Shown in pieces: positions 41,963 through 46,043 of a stretch of 64,000 nucleotides of DNA. Origin of the DNA: an uncultured Bacteroidia bacterium (GTDB taxonomy: Bacteria > Bacteroidota > Bacteroidia > Bacteroidales > UBA932); assembly GCA_902785065.1 (NCBI GenBank), contig CACZXH010000008.1:72-64071 (forward strand), written 5' to 3'. The notes beneath the pieces are model-generated. The model worked only from the letters and a program-made list of their open reading frames with translations, searched no databases and was not told the origin of the DNA. A program made the translations under genes and the position numbers. Positions within the stretch are counted from its first letter, which is position 1; each line of letters opens with the position of its first letter.

Positions 41963-43924
41963 TTATTCCTGGAATGAATACCCGAAACCGGGACGCGTCA
42001 CGATGCAATCCGCGTAGGGACCGATCTTCTTGCGGATGCGGGTGATGTTCACGTCCACGGTGCGGGCCGTCACGATGACGTCGTCCGGCCAGACGGCCGA
42101 TAGGAGCTCCTCGCGGGAAAAGACCTTTCCGCGGTTTTCCAGGAACAGCTTCAGGAGCTCGTATTCGGTCTTGGTAAAGGACACGGTCTCTCCGTCCACG
42201 CTGATCTCCTTGGCGTCGGTGTCCATCTGGATGCCGCGGTAGCGGATGCCGTTGCGGATGGCGCCCAGGCGGGCCTCCACGACATTGATGATGTAGTCGC
42301 CGGTCTTCTCGCATTCGCTGAAAAGGTCGACGAACACGGTGCCCTTGTCGTAATCGTACTTGCGGGCGTCCAGGTTCTCGATGTTCTGCCGCTTGAGCTC
42401 GTTGCGGCAGGCGTTGATCCGGCGCTCCAGGTCCTCGGAGACGGCAATCCCGAAGTCCTCCTTGTGCCCGGACAGGACGGTGTTCATCCGCGTGAGCGCT
42501 TCTTCCACCAGCGTGAACATGCGCCGGATGCCTTCGTCCATTTCCGGCGTAAACACGATTTTCGTCGCCCGCTTGCGGCGCAGGATGCGGGCCAGATTGA
42601 AGCAGCTGTCGCCCACGGATTCGAGCTCACCGATCTGACGGAGCATCCCGCGAATCTTTTCCTTGGTCTCGTCGGACAGATGGGCCTCGCCGACAGCGCT
42701 CAGGTAGCGGCCGATCTCGTTCTCCATCCGGTCGCTGCCCTCCTCTCCCTTGCGGAGACGATCGAAGAGCTTGCCGAATGCCTGCTCATCCTCTGTCGCA
42801 TACAGTTCCCGCACTTGTTCGAACATCCGCTGCGTATTCTCTCCGAAGACGGCTATCTCCTTCTGCGCCTGCAGGACGGAGATTTCGGGGGTGTTCATGA
42901 TACCTACCCGGATGTACTGGAGGCGGAATTCGTCCTCATCCTCCACTTTCTTGGGCTTGATGAGGAAGCACACGAGCTTCTCGATCTGCGGGATGAACCA
43001 GATCAGGATGGCGGTGTTGATCACGTTGAAGCAGGTATGGAACGTCGCCAGCGCGAAGGAAAGCTGGGTGGGACTCTGCTCGGAGGCATTGGGGTCCAGG
43101 CCGACGATACCGCACACCATCCGCACGAACGGGAAAAAGAGTATGAGCACCCAGATGACGCCGAACACATTGAAAACCAAGTGCGCCATGGCCGTCCGCC
43201 GGGCCTGCGTATTCGCGCTCAGCGCGGCCAGGTTCGCCGTGACCGTAGTACCAATGTTCTCGCCCATGACCAGGGCAATGCCCTGGAAGATGGAAATCGC
43301 ACCGGTCGCGCACAGAACCATCGTTATCGCCATCAGCGCGGCGGAACTCTGCACCAGCGCCGTCAGGATCGTACCGATCAGGAGGAACAACAGGATGGTA
43401 CCGTAATTTGTCTTGAAGCTTGCGAAGAACGCTACCACCTCCGGCTTGCTGGCTAGGTCCATCTCCACCCCCGTCTGCTTGAGCATGCCCAGGGCGAACA
43501 GCAGGAAGGAAAGGCCGAAGAGAAAATCGCCGAAATAGCGGTGTTTACCGATCTGGATCAGGATGATGCCGATAAGGAAAGCCGGCCACACGACATTGAC
43601 GACATTGAAGGAGAAGCCCGCCGACATGATCCACGCGCTCATCGTCGTGCCGATGTTCGCACCCATGATAATCGAAATGGCTTGTGCAAGGGTAAGCAGC
43701 GCCGCGTTCACGAAAGACACCGTCATCACGGTCGTTGCCGCCGAAGACTGGACGGCGACGGTCACCAGCGCGCCGGTCGCCACGCCAGTCAGCCGGTTCG
43801 TGGTCATGGCGCCGAGAAGGTGCCGCAACTGCGGGCCCGCCATCTTCTGGAGGGCCTCGCTCATCATCTTCATTCCGAATATCAGGAGGGCGATCGAGCC
43901 CAGGAGCTTCAAGGCGATAAGCAT
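41963..43924 (-). CDS. nptA: Na+/phosphate symporter (NptA/NaPi-II family) + PhoU-like domain + C-terminal OmpR/PhoB winged-helix DNA-binding domain
   Basis: Two QSSAA repeats and GANIGTT/GENIGTT motifs; helical PhoU-like region (GELESVGD, ECEKTGDYIINVVEA); tail FTKTEYELLKLF..GKVFSREELLSAVW..RTVDVNITRIRKKIG..IVTRPGFGYSF. Confidence 0.9.
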   Translation of the reverse strand: MLIALKLLGSIALLIFGMKMMSEALQKMAGPQLRHLLGAMTTNRLTGVATGALVTVAVQSSAATTVMTVSFVNAALLTLAQAISIIMGANIGTTMSAWIMSAGFSFNVVNVVWPAFLIGIILIQIGKHRYFGDFLFGLSFLLFALGMLKQTGVEMDLASKPEVVAFFASFKTNYGTILLFLLIGTILTALVQSSAALMAITMVLCATGAISIFQGIALVMGENIGTTVTANLAALSANTQARRTAMAHLVFNVFGVIWVLILFFPFVRMVCGIVGLDPNASEQSPTQLSFALATFHTCFNVINTAILIWFIPQIEKLVCFLIKPKKVEDEDEFRLQYIRVGIMNTPEISVLQAQKEIAVFGENTQRMFEQVRELYATEDEQAFGKLFDRLRKGEEGSDRMENEIGRYLSAVGEAHLSDETKEKIRGMLRQIGELESVGDSCFNLARILRRKRATKIVFTPEMDEGIRRMFTLVEEALTRMNTVLSGHKEDFGIAVSEDLERRINACRNELKRQNIENLDARKYDYDKGTVFVDLFSECEKTGDYIINVVEARLGAIRNGIRYRGIQMDTDAKEISVDGETVSFTKTEYELLKLFLENRGKVFSREELLSAVWPDDVIVTARTVDVNITRIRKKIGPYADCIVTRPGFGYSFQE

Positions 43925-43941
43925 AGATACAGATTATACTG

Positions 43942-43973
43942 CAAAGATACGCATGTCGCCGGATTCTCTCAAA
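43942..43973 (-). promoter_or_regulatory. Complete Bacteroidota promoter (-33 TTTG, 20 nt spacer, -7 TATCTTTG) for the nptA fusion
   Basis: CAAAGATA at 43942-43949 and CAAA at 43970-43973 on the plus strand. Confidence 0.65.
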
Positions 43974-44003
43974 AAAAAGATTCCTTTGCCTTCAAAAAAA
44001 AGA
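43969..44003. repeat. 12 bp direct repeat TCAAAAAAAAGA x2 (23 bp period)
   Basis: Identical copies at 43969-43980 and 43992-44003. Confidence 0.8.
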
Positions 44004-44012
44004 AAGAGATGC

Positions 44013-44741
44013 CTACCGGCCGTCCTCGGTCAGGCGGCGGAATTCTTCCCGGGCGCGGGCGATCTGGACCCGGTAGCGGAAACTGGTCTGCAGGCGGGCG
44101 TAGCCAATGCAGGCGGCCGTGGCGCTGGCGTCCACGTCGCTTTGCCAGTGACAGCCCGCGATGACGCGGCTCTCGCCGGAGACGAAGGCACGGGCGAACA
44201 GGGCCTCGGCGGCATCCGGATTGATTTCAGAGAGCACCAGCGCAGCACTCCAGGCCCGGATCGTATGGCCGGAAGGATAGGAGCCTTCCGTGGCCAGCCA
44301 GGCATCGTCCTGCGGAAAAATGGATTCCTCCTTGAAGCGGGCATACGGGCGCATCCGGAAGTAATGGGCCTTGGGCCGGAAGCGGATCTGCTCGATGGTG
44401 GACACGCCATTGACGAAAGCGCGGTAGATTTCCGGCGTCTTTTCGGCGGAGATTTCCATGCCGAAAGGCACGCTGTAGATGGTCCGCAGGGTGTCCAAGT
44501 CCCAGACGGCATCCCGCTTGGCCACGGCGAGCCGTTCTGGATCCAGCCGCTGTGTCTTTCCCCACATATACCGCATGATATCATGCGTGAAAGCCTCGCC
44601 GATGGTATCAGGCGGCGCCGGGAGGCATTGCACCAGGTCCGGAAGTTCTTCCTCGGTCAGATACAGTTCGACAGCCGGCTGGGCGCGAAGGACAAAGGCA
44701 CCGAAAAACAGTGCGACAAAGGCTGGGATAAACGATTTCAT
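44013..44741 (-). CDS. Class A non-specific acid phosphatase (PAP2 superfamily), exported (~242 aa)
   Basis: Likely start MKSFIPA at 44741; the three PAP2 motifs KAHYFRMRP, SYPSGH and SRVIAGCHWQSDV; signal peptide. Confidence 0.9.
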   Translation of the reverse strand: MKSFIPAFVALFFGAFVLRAQPAVELYLTEEELPDLVQCLPAPPDTIGEAFTHDIMRYMWGKTQRLDPERLAVAKRDAVWDLDTLRTIYSVPFGMEISAEKTPEIYRAFVNGVSTIEQIRFRPKAHYFRMRPYARFKEESIFPQDDAWLATEGSYPSGHTIRAWSAALVLSEINPDAAEALFARAFVSGESRVIAGCHWQSDVDASATAACIGYARLQTSFRYRVQIARAREEFRRLTEDGR

Positions 44742-44758
44742 GTTGCAAAGATACACAA

Positions 44759-44780
44759 GCGGGAGAAAAAAACCTCCCGC
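44759..44780 (-). terminator. Hairpin between the DUF4421 gene and the phosphatase promoter (possible terminator)
   Basis: GCGGGAG-N8-CTCCCGC followed on the minus strand by TTGTGTATCTTT. Confidence 0.4.
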
Positions 44781-44809
44781 CGGGGAATAAATAAATACGG
44801 CTTCCGTTC

Positions 44810-45970
44810 CTAGAAACGCCACCCCAGGCGGATGGAGGTCGTCCAGCGGAAAAAAGAGCCCTCGGTCTTCACTTCATCACTCTGGAAGCCTCCGTAAACG
44901 ATGGAACTGATTCCCCTGTACGTGTGGTCGTTGTTGCTGGCGGAAAGGTTGACGGAAAACTGATTGTACGTGTATCCGATGCCGATGCGCGCGACATAGT
45001 TCACCTGCAGCTTACCGTTCCTGACGTCTTTGTCCACCCTCGTGTAAACCCCGTTTTCCAAATCATTGTAGGCCGTCGAGGAGAACTGGTTGAATAAGGT
45101 CACCATGGGCAGGAAAGTCAGGTTGATGGTCAGGTTGCGGAGACCTTTGTCCTTTTCGGCATACGGCTGCCGGTGGAATGGGACCAGGTTGTAAGAATAG
45201 CCGCCGCCGAACATCACCTGCGCAGTGGTCTGCCGGGCCTGGCCGTTTACCCAGTGGGCGATATCTTCTTCCGGGTCGATGCGGTATTCCCCCAGGATGA
45301 GCTTGGAGCCGAACATCCAGCTGCCGGAGCTGCGTTTCTGGAACAGATTCCCCCGATAGGCGGCTGAGTAGGCGAACTTCCGGCGGTTGAATGCATAGAA
45401 GGCGTCCAGGAGAAAAGACCGTATCTGTCCGGGCTTTTCGGTGACTCCGTCCTCGTCCCGGTAGGCCCAGTGCCCTTCTTCTCCGAAGACCTGATGAAAC
45501 TCCACCGGATTCGAATACCGGAAATACTGCGCCTGAAAGGCATATCCGGCGGACTGATAATCAAATGAATAGACATCGTCGGTTCTCCCGCCGCCCAGAT
45601 TCTTGCTCAAGGAAAGGCTCAAGTCCCCATAGCCGACCTGCACCCCGATTCCCGTGCCAACCTGGCCTTTCAGGTTGGCAGAAATGTTGACAGGTATTTC
45701 TTCAATGATCAATTCCCCCGAGGGTGACAGTTTGGCGGAAGGAAGGGAAAAGTCCTGTTTCTGGGAGAAACGGGCTTGTCTCAGGTCCCCTGTCAAGGCC
45801 AAAGTCCAACGTGGAGCCGGCACATAGACGGCATTCGGGTCCAGTGCCCTGGAAGAATCCAGGATTCTGTCCAACAGACGATAGGCAGCCCCTTTCTGCC
45901 CTTGCGCATGGGCAGGACAGAGGAAAGACAGGGTCGCCGACAAGACAAGGATGACACGGAGCAGACGCAT
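44810..45970 (-). CDS. DUF4421-like outer-membrane beta-barrel protein
   Basis: Signal peptide (start MRLLRVI at 45970), alternating beta-strand pattern, QKRSSGSW, GGGYSYNLV, C-terminal LGWRF. Confidence 0.65.
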   Translation of the reverse strand: MRLLRVILVLSATLSFLCPAHAQGQKGAAYRLLDRILDSSRALDPNAVYVPAPRWTLALTGDLRQARFSQKQDFSLPSAKLSPSGELIIEEIPVNISANLKGQVGTGIGVQVGYGDLSLSLSKNLGGGRTDDVYSFDYQSAGYAFQAQYFRYSNPVEFHQVFGEEGHWAYRDEDGVTEKPGQIRSFLLDAFYAFNRRKFAYSAAYRGNLFQKRSSGSWMFGSKLILGEYRIDPEEDIAHWVNGQARQTTAQVMFGGGYSYNLVPFHRQPYAEKDKGLRNLTINLTFLPMVTLFNQFSSTAYNDLENGVYTRVDKDVRNGKLQVNYVARIGIGYTYNQFSVNLSASNNDHTYRGISSIVYGGFQSDEVKTEGSFFRWTTSIRLGWRF

Positions 45971-46043
45971 GATTGATCGATTCTGATGCAAAAATACGGA
46001 TTATTTCCATATCACGCTTTCCTTGCGCCTGTTTTTCAAAGTA

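Follow-up and report, generated by a model that had tools for sequence, protein, structure and literature searches.

A single uninterrupted open reading frame of 653 codons plus stop occupies positions 41963..43924 on the minus strand of the window (the whole stretch of 64,000 nt of Bacteroidales DNA that was analyzed). The preliminary description of this DNA had reported this unbroken frame in the list of open reading frames and had proposed a Pfam search for three domains, all of which are present: Na_Pi_cotrans (PF02690, 3e-52) and PhoU (PF01895, 3.4e-12), each in two stretches, and Trans_reg_C (PF00486, 2.1e-22) at residues 578-651. Its product, according to Pfam and NCBIfam, is a NaPi-II/NptA-type transporter, a PhoU-like domain and a PhoB-type DNA-binding effector domain in a single polypeptide. 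Directly upstream, on the same strand and 88 nt away, lies a gene for a PAP2-family acid phosphatase (44013..44822, PF01569). This adjacency was considered as a conserved phosphate module and rejected, since tblastn found the synteny only in L021-23, L055 and L056, which are the nearest relatives.

Domain organization of the fusion protein

Residues 1-325 (42950..43924, minus strand) form the NaPi-II/NptA membrane core with its two inverted repeats (PF02690, TIGR00704). NCBIfam likewise assigns this part to the Na/Pi symporters, with 214.5 bits for TIGR00704 (cut-off 210.1 bits) and 186.7 bits for NF037997. The two QSS motifs of the core, which had been noticed before, are Q59 S60 S61 and Q192 S193 S194; they are invariant across 50 homologues, and both Na_Pi_cotrans repeats can be aligned to the SLC34A2 structures 9z60-66. 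Family membership predicts that the fusion protein imports Pi coupled to Na+. The suspected PhoU-like helical domain (PF01895, in two stretches) is recovered as a cytoplasmic domain of six long helices at residues 346-553 (42266..42889, minus strand), which AF2 models at a pLDDT of 85-95. Its ExxxD motifs, E435-D439 and E539-D543, occupy invariant columns in the homologue alignment.

A short linker of six residues, G-A-I-R-N-G (residues 554-559; 42248..42265, minus strand), marks the fusion junction, which was located by alignment of the fused proteins with unfused NptA and PhoB, by an nptA-phoB-phoR operon (L087, see below) and by contigs that span it. The winged-helix part, expected from about 42270, begins at residue 555 (nt 42262), and the OmpR/PhoB-type winged-helix DNA-binding domain proper covers residues 560-653 (41966..42247, minus strand; PF00486, NF053854, AF2/Foldseek). 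Its recognition helix RTVDVNITRIRKKI (residues 621-634, nt 42023-42064, minus strand) and its wing TRPGFGY (residues 643-649, nt 41978-41998, minus strand) lie as they had been read. Of the Bacteroidetes PhoB model NF053854, the C-terminus covers only the DNA-binding half (positions 131-225, 124.8 bits), and the protein has no Response_reg match in Pfam. It is therefore devoid of a receiver domain, as had been claimed, and of the phospho-acceptor aspartate. In the AF2 model of the fusion protein (pTM 0.51) the C-terminal domain adopts a winged-helix fold with a four-stranded sheet, three helices and a wing. The best Foldseek matches of the domain are 1GXQ and 1GXP (TM 0.83-0.85), the effector domain of E. 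coli PhoB free and bound to pho-box DNA, respectively. A polytopic transporter core and an OmpR-type winged helix are thus encoded within one frame, and homology predicts that the core is inserted in the membrane.

Conservation of the fusion

A survey of other Bacteroidales for the same architecture, which the preliminary description had advised, recovered the full-length fusion with one common junction in 41 species-level rumen genomes from many studies, and more than 120 protein clusters contain all three domains. When 400 genomes were screened for fusions elsewhere in the phylum, the window's genome was the only one to have it, and a search of 1.84 billion proteins returned only fragments of the same fusion family. 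Longer NptA homologues (696-786 aa) were considered as further fusions and rejected, as their extra length consists of N-terminal extensions and includes no winged helix. The interval 42240-42300, singled out beforehand as the place where a chimera would show, is crossed with zero differences by contigs of independent metagenome runs, among them X1 (840 nt) and X5 (27.6 kb), and by contigs of the rumen metatranscriptomes X25, X26 and X33; the DNA runs with such contigs number at least 4 and the RNA runs 3. Across orthologues with saturated synonymous sites, the winged helix and the transporter both have a dN/dS of 0.061, and the PhoU domain has one of 0.076. Purifying selection at the codon level thus continues across the junction. 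Although the source genomes are metagenome-assembled and nptA-phoB adjacency is present in relatives, the idea that an assembly or binning chimera joined nptA to a separate response-regulator gene is refuted by the DNA and RNA runs that cross the junction and by the identity of the junction in 41 independently assembled genomes; the selection across the junction also speaks against it.

Origin of the fusion

The separate genes from which the fusion could have arisen are still found side by side. In L087, nptA is followed after 18 nt by phoB and then by a short phoR, and the winged helix of this PhoB is 61% identical to the fused one; in G402, 24 nt separate nptA from phoB-phoR, and in G506 nptA is divergent from phoBR. 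When fused proteins, unfused NptA and PhoB are aligned, all that is left of the PhoB receiver at the junction is the last part of helix alpha5; the linker is a remnant of this part, joined to the last NptA helix. Unfused homologues that are 75-87% identical over residues 1-554 terminate within a few residues of the same point. The DNA-binding domain is a derivative of PhoB. The fusion had a single origin, in a lineage of rumen Bacteroidales, and started from an nptA-phoB-phoR operon. A deletion that kept the reading frame took out the stop codon of nptA, the short spacer behind it and PhoB up to about residue 117, thereby joining the last helix of NptA (..NVVEARLG) to the terminal part of helix alpha5 of PhoB (..VVARVGA..).

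In a tree built without the winged-helix columns, the fused forms are basal and the unfused forms nested, which indicates one gain and about 7 losses of the winged helix. L055 is a natural allele of this kind: it is 96% identical to the window's copy and its winged helix is deleted. X14 contains variants that diverge exactly at the junction.

Distribution of PhoB, PhoR and Pst

To the sample of 151 genomes of the family, fusion genomes contribute 9, from three genera, and other genomes 142. PhoB was found in 0 of the 9 fusion genomes versus 118 of the 142 others (Fisher p = 4e-7, uncorrected for shared ancestry, with fusions in three genera). For PhoR, the model NF053855 found nothing in all 9 fusion genomes, and PstA/C are absent from every tested genome of the three fusion genera. 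In the window's genome, PstS, PstC, PstA, PhoU, PhoB and PhoR were not found; tblastn for PhoR returned only generic kinases at about 25% identity, and the only other OmpR-type fragment is RprY-like. This distribution fits the idea that the fusion stands in for PhoR/PhoB in the species that carry it, of which there are at least 41. The Pst transporter was lost before the fusion arose, and PhoB and PhoR after it. Some two dozen family members lack both the fusion and PhoB; together with the repeated loss of the winged helix, this implies that the regulator is dispensable in the rumen.

A predicted Pho box in orthologous promoters

Of about 38 fused orthologous loci, 28 have the direct repeat GTTAAAATTCTGTTACAATT of 20 bp at a distance of 80 (±1) nt upstream of the ATG, whereas 0 of 24 loci of older unfused paralogues have it. 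L055, the recent deletion allele, retains a decayed copy. The predicted operator consists of 11-bp direct repeats (GTTAAAA-N4-GTTACAA), and 19 of 26 promoters have a second element that lies in helical phase. A weight matrix was built from the fused-locus sites, with four PhoB-bearing relatives excluded from building. Its single best match in each of these four is a pst, nptA or phoBR promoter (28.7 bits in L094, 22.9 in L096, 19.8 in L099 and 17.1 in L097). Because the matrix was trained on related sequences, only these matches count as independent tests, and since the same motif stands at the pst, nptA and phoBR promoters of PhoB-bearing relatives, it can be regarded as the Pho box of the family.

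The predicted operator also co-varies with the recognition helix: 27 of 29 loci with the canonical helix have the box, and so do 0 of 10 loci with a diverged helix. The ten fused orthologues that lack the box have drifted recognition helices. We also searched the 9 fusion genomes for a wider regulon, allowing exact and one-mismatch boxes. This recovered the fusion genes' own promoters in G520 and G422; the few sites beyond own promoters were no commoner than the control and did not reveal a clear regulon. The two other exact sites, one between susD and susC and one near recF, look like chance.

The copy in the window

The 88-nt region upstream of the fusion gene (43925..44012, minus strand) was compared with 60 orthologous upstream regions and with L021 and L055. 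Unlike the orthologues, which have the box at their 80-nt position, it contains no Pho box, and the window's copy has lost the box through an upstream deletion. What the region does contain is a Bacteroidetes-type -7 box, TATCTTTG, at 43942-43949, and two T-rich 12-mers at 43969-43980 and 43992-44003. We rejected these 12-mers as an operator: no orthologue conserves them, they replace the Pho box after the deletion, they are unlike the PhoB half-site, and one lies within a T-run of variable length. Searching the window and its genome for the operator pattern with 3 mismatches yielded 1 match versus 3 expected by chance, and the best score of the matrix in the genome was 16.7 bits versus 25-40 bits at true sites. 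Of two loose half-site matches, one follows a phosphoesterase gene that neighbors radA, and the other overlaps the start codon of the gene for ribosomal protein L16. All of these matches were judged to be due to chance. A second fused copy in the same genome is also without a box and has a drifted recognition helix.

With the promoter box lost and no recognizable box in the genome, the regulatory role is less certain here than in relatives. The main function of the window's copy is probably that of its transporter half. Its regulatory half would either be recently orphaned or act on unrecognized sites, and may thus be decaying or retargeted. The proposal of one-component phosphate regulation without PhoR/PhoB therefore has to be divided. 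What speaks for it is a real, conserved architecture with a PhoB-type winged helix in a genome that lacks PhoB, PhoR, PstSCA and PhoU, and the Pho box in orthologous promoters; for the source organism itself, the loss of the box from its promoter and genome speaks against it.

Proposed mechanism and alternative explanations

The reading that we favor, with a probability of roughly two in three, is that of a real fusion which arose by deletion within nptA-phoB-phoR and acts as a membrane-tethered, autoregulated one-component phosphate regulator. The fusion protein would reside in the membrane and import Pi, and its PhoU-like domain, rather than signaling to PhoR, would communicate Pi or the transport state straight to the winged helix to which it is attached. 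This DNA-binding domain would then bind the predicted Pho box that immediately precedes the -33/-7 promoter of its own gene, resulting in positive autoregulation. The analysis shows the architecture, origin and distribution of the fusion, the loss of PhoBR, the purifying selection on the winged helix and a conserved operator that varies together with the recognition helix. DNA binding at the membrane, the sign of the regulation and the gating by Pi are what we infer here. For the gating, the one set of experiments that helps comes from S. aureus, where the PhoU domain of NptA signals to PhoPR and modulates its activity (PMC13170248). That the whole phosphate pathway has collapsed into one chain, in which the transporter is the sensor, the PhoU-like domain the transducer that gates the PhoB effector, and the own promoter is activated from the membrane, seems to us an evenly balanced proposition.

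The alternative that survives best, although it is unlikely, is that the winged helix is an evolutionary leftover, a passenger without a regulatory role on a Pi transporter. It would account for the promoter and genome of the window being devoid of a Pho box, for the drift of recognition helices where the box is absent, for about 7 losses of the winged helix, one of them in a 96%-identical allele, and for rumen genomes that have neither PhoB nor the fusion. A passenger, however, would not be expected to keep the dN/dS of its transporter (0.06, across orthologues with saturated synonymous sites), to be retained with its junction in 41 species, or to co-vary with a Pho box at a fixed position. 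As an account of the whole family this alternative is weak; it may apply to the window's own copy.

Rather less probable is that regulated proteolysis at the short linker frees the winged helix, which would then work in solution as a PhoB effector domain without a receiver. In E. coli, PhoB effector domains on their own are constitutively active, and residues 554-559 form an exposed six-residue linker in the AF2 model. The membrane regulator CadC is described as being activated by proteolysis (PMC11484849). On the other hand, tethered regulators of the ToxR/CadC type are able to bind DNA from the membrane. The very short linker is conserved together with the helix end to which it belongs, and a protease site, a partner protease gene or a conserved cleavage motif was not found.

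We consider it still more doubtful that the fusion protein represses its own promoter in negative feedback, or activates it constitutively without sensing Pi. The operator is essentially confined to the fusion gene's own promoter, which fits homeostatic feedback. Yet the box sits upstream of the -33 element and overlaps neither this element nor the -7 element or the start site, which is the position of a PhoB-type activator. The same box precedes the pst and phoBR operons of relatives, where PhoB is by homology an activator, and a PhoU-like domain with invariant ExxxD motifs has been kept beside the DNA-binding domain.

Significance

It has long been asked how PhoU-type domains relay the phosphate signal of a transporter to the Pho regulator, and short-lived contacts among several proteins make this difficult to study. 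In the fusion family, a conserved six-residue linker connects the PhoU-like domain with the PhoB effector, which makes their coupling directly testable. Natural controls are provided by relatives with separate nptA-phoB-phoR genes, by alleles in which the winged helix is deleted, by paralogues with a drifted recognition helix and by a defined 20-bp operator. If the membrane-tethered regulator is real, it would demonstrate, with an example from nature, that neither a kinase nor a receiver is needed for a PhoU domain to control a DNA-binding output. It would also show that a two-component system can become a one-component system through a single in-frame deletion of the phosphorylation switch, with intermediates (nptA-phoB-phoR operons) and reversions (alleles without the winged helix) persisting in the rumen. 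The family would thus record the stepwise conversion of a two-component into a membrane-tethered one-component system, and a full secondary transporter would be an added kind of sensor among transmembrane transcription regulators. Fusion proteins are currently annotated only as "Na/Pi symporter", so that annotations do not reveal what would be the only Pho-type regulator in a widespread group of rumen Bacteroidales.

Comparison with known systems

Our literature searches found no description of a transporter-PhoU-winged-helix architecture, consistent with the earlier remark that no such protein had been characterized; its parts, by contrast, belong to known families. The fusion resembles PhoB in its PhoB-type winged helix (NF053854 positions 131-225; 1GXQ, 1GXP) and in a predicted operator, the 11-bp direct repeat, that is common to the pst and phoBR promoters of relatives. 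It differs from PhoB/PhoR in lacking a receiver, a phospho-acceptor aspartate and PhoR, so that any control must be phosphorylation-independent, and in being covalently attached to a polytopic transporter. [quoted passage not shown] However, PhoU is the last domain of the known members, and any signal that they send goes to a separate two-component system, whereas the fusion carries the output domain of such a system within the transporter.

Like ToxR, CadC and TcpP, the fusion would be a one-component regulator that needs no phosphorylation, with an OmpR-family winged helix at the cytoplasmic face of the membrane, where it is predicted to be located. In those proteins, the winged helix is N-terminal and is followed by one transmembrane helix and a periplasmic sensor, whereas in the fusion it is C-terminal and follows a multi-helix transporter of about 325 residues and a cytoplasmic PhoU domain. 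A survey of transmembrane regulators and its supplements (PMC10269533) make no mention of Na_Pi_cotrans or PhoU. Finally, trigger transporters such as PstSCAB-PhoU with PhoR, or LysP with CadC, resemble the proposed system in that the state of a transporter is read as a transcriptional signal. There, the reading depends on non-covalent contact between separate polypeptides, whereas in the fusion the transporter, the accessory domain and the DNA-binding output are one chain.

Domain architecture and occurrence of the fusion

The minus strand of the window encodes, at 41963..43924, a single unbroken open reading frame of 653 aa in which Pfam recognizes Na_Pi_cotrans (two stretches, 3e-52), PhoU (two stretches, 3.4e-12) and Trans_reg_C (aa 578-651, 2.1e-22). 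The NCBIfam models TIGR00704 and NF037997 designate aa 1-325 as a Na/Pi symporter, and of NF053854, the Bacteroidetes PhoB model, the C-terminus matches only the effector half (positions 131-225; 124.8 bits); neither Pfam nor NCBIfam detected a receiver domain in the protein. Aligning 50 homologues revealed no variation in either QSS motif or in two ExxxD motifs of the PhoU-like domain, and both transporter repeats align in sequence with the solved structures of SLC34A2. In the AlphaFold2 model (mean pLDDT 79.9, pTM 0.51) the helical transporter is followed by a PhoU-like bundle of six helices (aa 346-553), which a linker of 6 residues (554-559) joins to a canonical winged helix of the OmpR/PhoB type; the latter has three helices, a four-strand sheet and a wing, with the recognition helix at ~620-633. 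In the PDB, the structures that match best are those of the E. coli PhoB effector domain, both alone and in complex with pho-box DNA (1GXQ, 1GXP; TM 0.83-0.85). All elements named in the preliminary description, namely the NptA core, the PhoU-like domain, the winged helix and the lack of a receiver, are present, and its coordinates were correct.

At least 120 clusters of ~653 aa, 71-96% identical and with all three Pfam domains, were retrieved from 5.8 billion proteins; they come from many independent assemblies and, where named, are annotated only as "Na/Pi symporter". The preliminary description had proposed looking for the same architecture in other Bacteroidales and checking coverage of the junction. 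Of the species-representative genomes, 41 carry a full-length fusion, all with the junction ..NVVEARLGA(I/V)RNGIR.. in common. These are metagenome-assembled genomes of rumen Bacteroidales, the hosts being cattle, sheep, goat, buffalo, yak, deer and reindeer; some are recorded as Candidatus Cryptobacteroides. The junction (nt 42263) is spanned without differences by contigs of independent metagenome runs, one of them 27.6 kb long and from a different study, and it is also crossed by contigs from three rumen metatranscriptomes, which shows that the fusion is not an artefact. One 4-kb contig with a typical Bacteroidales fusion gene (L030, JAFVGH010000039.1) is filed under a Fibrobacter sp. metagenome-assembled genome, probably through a binning error, and the Prevotella sp. 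label of locus L087 may deserve the same caution. Two further proteins were encountered: P0249, from a search of 1.84 billion proteins, has 692 aa and consists solely of six tandem Trans_reg_C winged helices (Pfam 2.5e-83, 6 stretches), and P0206 (786 aa) is an NptA-PhoU homologue with an N-terminal extension; the match of this extension to the N-terminal domain of purple acid phosphatase is weak (28.3 bits, just short of the Pfam cut-off of 30), and the protein may be a phosphatase-transporter fusion.

Replacement of PhoBR by the fusion

In the window's genome (2.74 Mb, 95% complete) nothing scores above the PhoB model cut-off, the best matches being its two fusions, and the sole further OmpR-type fragment is RprY-like. 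Using the pstS, pstCAB, phoU, phoB and phoR proteins of the family relative G414 as tblastn queries, we found no PstS, PstC, PstA or PhoU in this genome, and the PstB and PhoR queries retrieved only generic ABC ATPases and generic kinases, respectively. PhoB is present in 118 of 151 family genomes but in none of the 9 that bear a fusion (Fisher p = 4e-7, ignoring shared ancestry; the fusions occur in three genera), and PhoR is absent from all 9. Because PstA/C is missing from every tested genome of the three fusion genera, including those that keep PhoBR, and PhoB and PhoR are missing from the fusion genomes, we conclude that the clade first lost high-affinity Pst and linked PhoBR to nptA, and that part of it then swapped PhoBR for the fusion. 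About two dozen family genomes contain neither PhoB nor the fusion; the absence of both regulators fits the phosphate-rich rumen.

Gain and repeated loss of the winged helix

The state before the fusion is preserved in the relatives L087, G402 and G506. At L087, nptA (product ending in ..GDYVVNVVQARFGK) is followed after 18 nt by phoB and a short phoR; G402 has nptA, a gap of 24 nt and phoB-phoR, and in G506 phoB-phoR and nptA are divergent. The L087 PhoB has ..REVVARVGAVLKRN.. in helix alpha5; its winged helix shares 61% identity with that of the fusion, and its recognition helix, RTVDVNITRLRKKLG, is near-identical. PhoB alpha5 aligns over the last NptA helix, and the fused proteins change over after (V)VEARLG, at the following A, the simplest history being a single in-frame deletion between these two similar helix ends. 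Where relatives without Pst encode PhoR next to nptA (L087:7420-8358, L096:4394-5617 and L099:285-1517), this kinase is short, with 312-410 aa compared to the 580 aa of G414's canonical Bacteroidetes PhoR. [quoted passage not shown] Since junction remnants, such as ..EARLGAIKEI or ..EARLGASH, still end unfused proteins, the winged helix was acquired a single time and subsequently lost several times over, often from one of two paralogues. A very recent loss is seen at L055:3599-5281 (CAMVPS010000099.1), where a gene 96% identical to that of the window has a clean ~290-nt deletion that takes exactly the winged helix and leaves the end ..EARLGASH. Contig variants in a sheep metagenome run (X14) diverge at the same breakpoint, exactly at window nt 42262-42264. 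These losses might invite the view that the winged helix is a non-functional passenger domain. For the family as a whole this is unlikely, as the domain is under purifying selection, although the window's own copy may be such a case: dN/dS over 14 orthologues, whose synonymous sites are saturated, is 0.061 in the winged helix, 0.061 in the transporter and 0.076 in the PhoU domain. Between the window gene and L021, synonymous divergence falls to 0.07 in the winged-helix segment (41966-42262), versus 0.39 in the transporter and 0.32 in PhoU, which suggests that the 3' end of the gene recently recombined between strains.

A conserved Pho box upstream of the fusion

The upstream regions of the orthologues diverge freely with the sole exception of a 20-bp direct repeat, GTTAAAATTCTGTTACAATT, made of two units of 11 bp each and located 80 (+/-1) nt 5' of the ATG in 28 of ~38 fused loci. 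It lies a few bases 5' of a Bacteroidetes-type -33/-7 (TAnnTTTG) promoter, a position that, judged from the sequence, is activator-like. The repeat is found at none of 24 loci of older unfused paralogues, and L055 has a decayed copy (5 mismatches, 22 bits). A second element, TTTC-N5-G(A/G)TTACAA, precedes the repeat by two helical turns in 19 of 26 promoters, which brings four half-sites into phase.

A weight matrix was built from box sites other than those of four relatives with canonical PhoB, in each of which its single best match is the expected promoter: 5' of pstCAB-phoU-phoBR in G414 (28.7 bits), 5' of nptA-phoB-phoR in G402 (22.9 bits), between phoBR and nptA in G506 (19.8 bits) and 5' of phoB in G459 (17.1 bits). 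L087 scores 25.0 bits, but was in the training set. These matches at pst, nptA and phoBR promoters of PhoB-bearing relatives identify the motif as the predicted Pho box of the family. In fusion genomes, no PhoB-type DNA-binding domain other than that of the fusion protein is there to read it. The box accompanies the helix RT(V/I)DVNIT(R/H)IR(K/R)KIG at 27 of 29 loci and diverged helices at 0 of 10, a pattern of co-variation between recognition helix and box. Box searches of the fusion genomes revealed no convincing targets beyond the fusion genes' own promoters, which makes the core circuit look autoregulatory. A second perfect Pho box occurs at L043:2086-2105, 2.9 kb 5' of the fusion gene, where it lies at the 3' end of a gene for a permease that has a heavy-metal-associated domain.

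The copy in the window and its paralogue

The window copy is atypical among the orthologues. In its closest relatives, L021-23 (97% identical), the fusion gene is preceded by a cation-efflux gene, then PAP2, then a small, divergently oriented lipoprotein gene and finally the Pho box. In the window, a DUF4421 gene (44810-45991) that these relatives lack at the locus separates the cation-efflux gene from PAP2, whose start it overlaps by 13 nt; this is a local rearrangement specific to the window's genome. Compared to the same relatives, ~500 nt between PAP2 and the fusion gene are gone, Pho box included, and the remaining 88 nt contain a -7 box and a duplicated T-rich 12-mer, an arrangement found in several independent samples. 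The copies of this 12-mer, TCTTTTTTTTGA, at 43992-44003 and 43969-43980 (23 nt apart), take the place of the Pho-box region and are conserved in no orthologue; one T-run varies in length across samples (1-nt deletion at 43994 in run X5). Pattern and matrix scans detected no Pho box anywhere in the window's genome. The winged helix is intact and its recognition helix canonical.

A second fused paralogue of 652 aa (79% identical, all three domains) is encoded outside the window at C13:45623-47581 (= L095:7624-9582). Its recognition helix is diverged (RVVDTYINRLRRKIG), and its sister group in the tree is a clade of unfused paralogues. The gene lacks its own promoter and begins 15 nt past the gene for a 942-aa M28-peptidase-domain protein, with which it is, given this spacing, probably co-transcribed. 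Together with the box loss in the window and the L055 deletion, the diverged helix makes it look as if this sub-lineage is dismantling or retargeting the regulatory half. The one-component phosphate regulation without PhoR/PhoB that had been proposed from the window gene is partly supported, strongly so at the family level, by the PhoBR loss, the Pho box and selection, but weakened for the window gene itself because its operator is lost.

Proposed mechanism and comparison with known systems

Since the effector domain of E. coli PhoB is active when freed from its receiver, a regulator that lacks a receiver is plausible. Release of the winged helix by proteolysis would likewise yield a free effector domain, but we regard such cleavage as quite improbable. 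A fusion that represses, or that gives signal-independent feedback, might also suit an autoregulatory circuit; considering the activator-like position of the box, this appears very improbable. We favor a membrane-embedded fusion protein that would bind its own promoter, with the PhoU-like domain acting directly on the attached effector domain; by homology, both domains are predicted to be cytoplasmic. The PhoU-like domain could occlude the recognition helix, or it could control protomer pairing and thereby let two winged helices fill the direct repeats. In S. aureus, the PhoU domain of NptA modulates PhoPR (PMC13170248).

According to the preliminary description, no characterised protein is known to have this architecture, and our literature searches for an NptA-PhoU-winged-helix protein likewise found none. 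A survey of >50,000 transmembrane regulators and its supplements mention neither Na_Pi_cotrans nor PhoU (PMC10269533), and the 2026 study of the NptA PhoU domain mentions neither a fusion nor DNA binding (PMC13170248). The fusion belongs to the NptA/NaPi-II family, in which the PhoU domain is typical for its clade. With the PhoB response regulators it shares the effector domain, whereas their defining receiver and kinase are missing. The fusion would work like the ToxR/CadC transmembrane transcription regulators, but its architecture is not theirs: the winged helix stands at the C-terminus, the accessory domain is cytoplasmic, and a polytopic transporter replaces the single transmembrane helix. 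We rate the fusion as a putative one-component regulator, tethered to the membrane, in which a complete transporter serves as the sensor, and its path from a two-component to a one-component system is unusually well documented.
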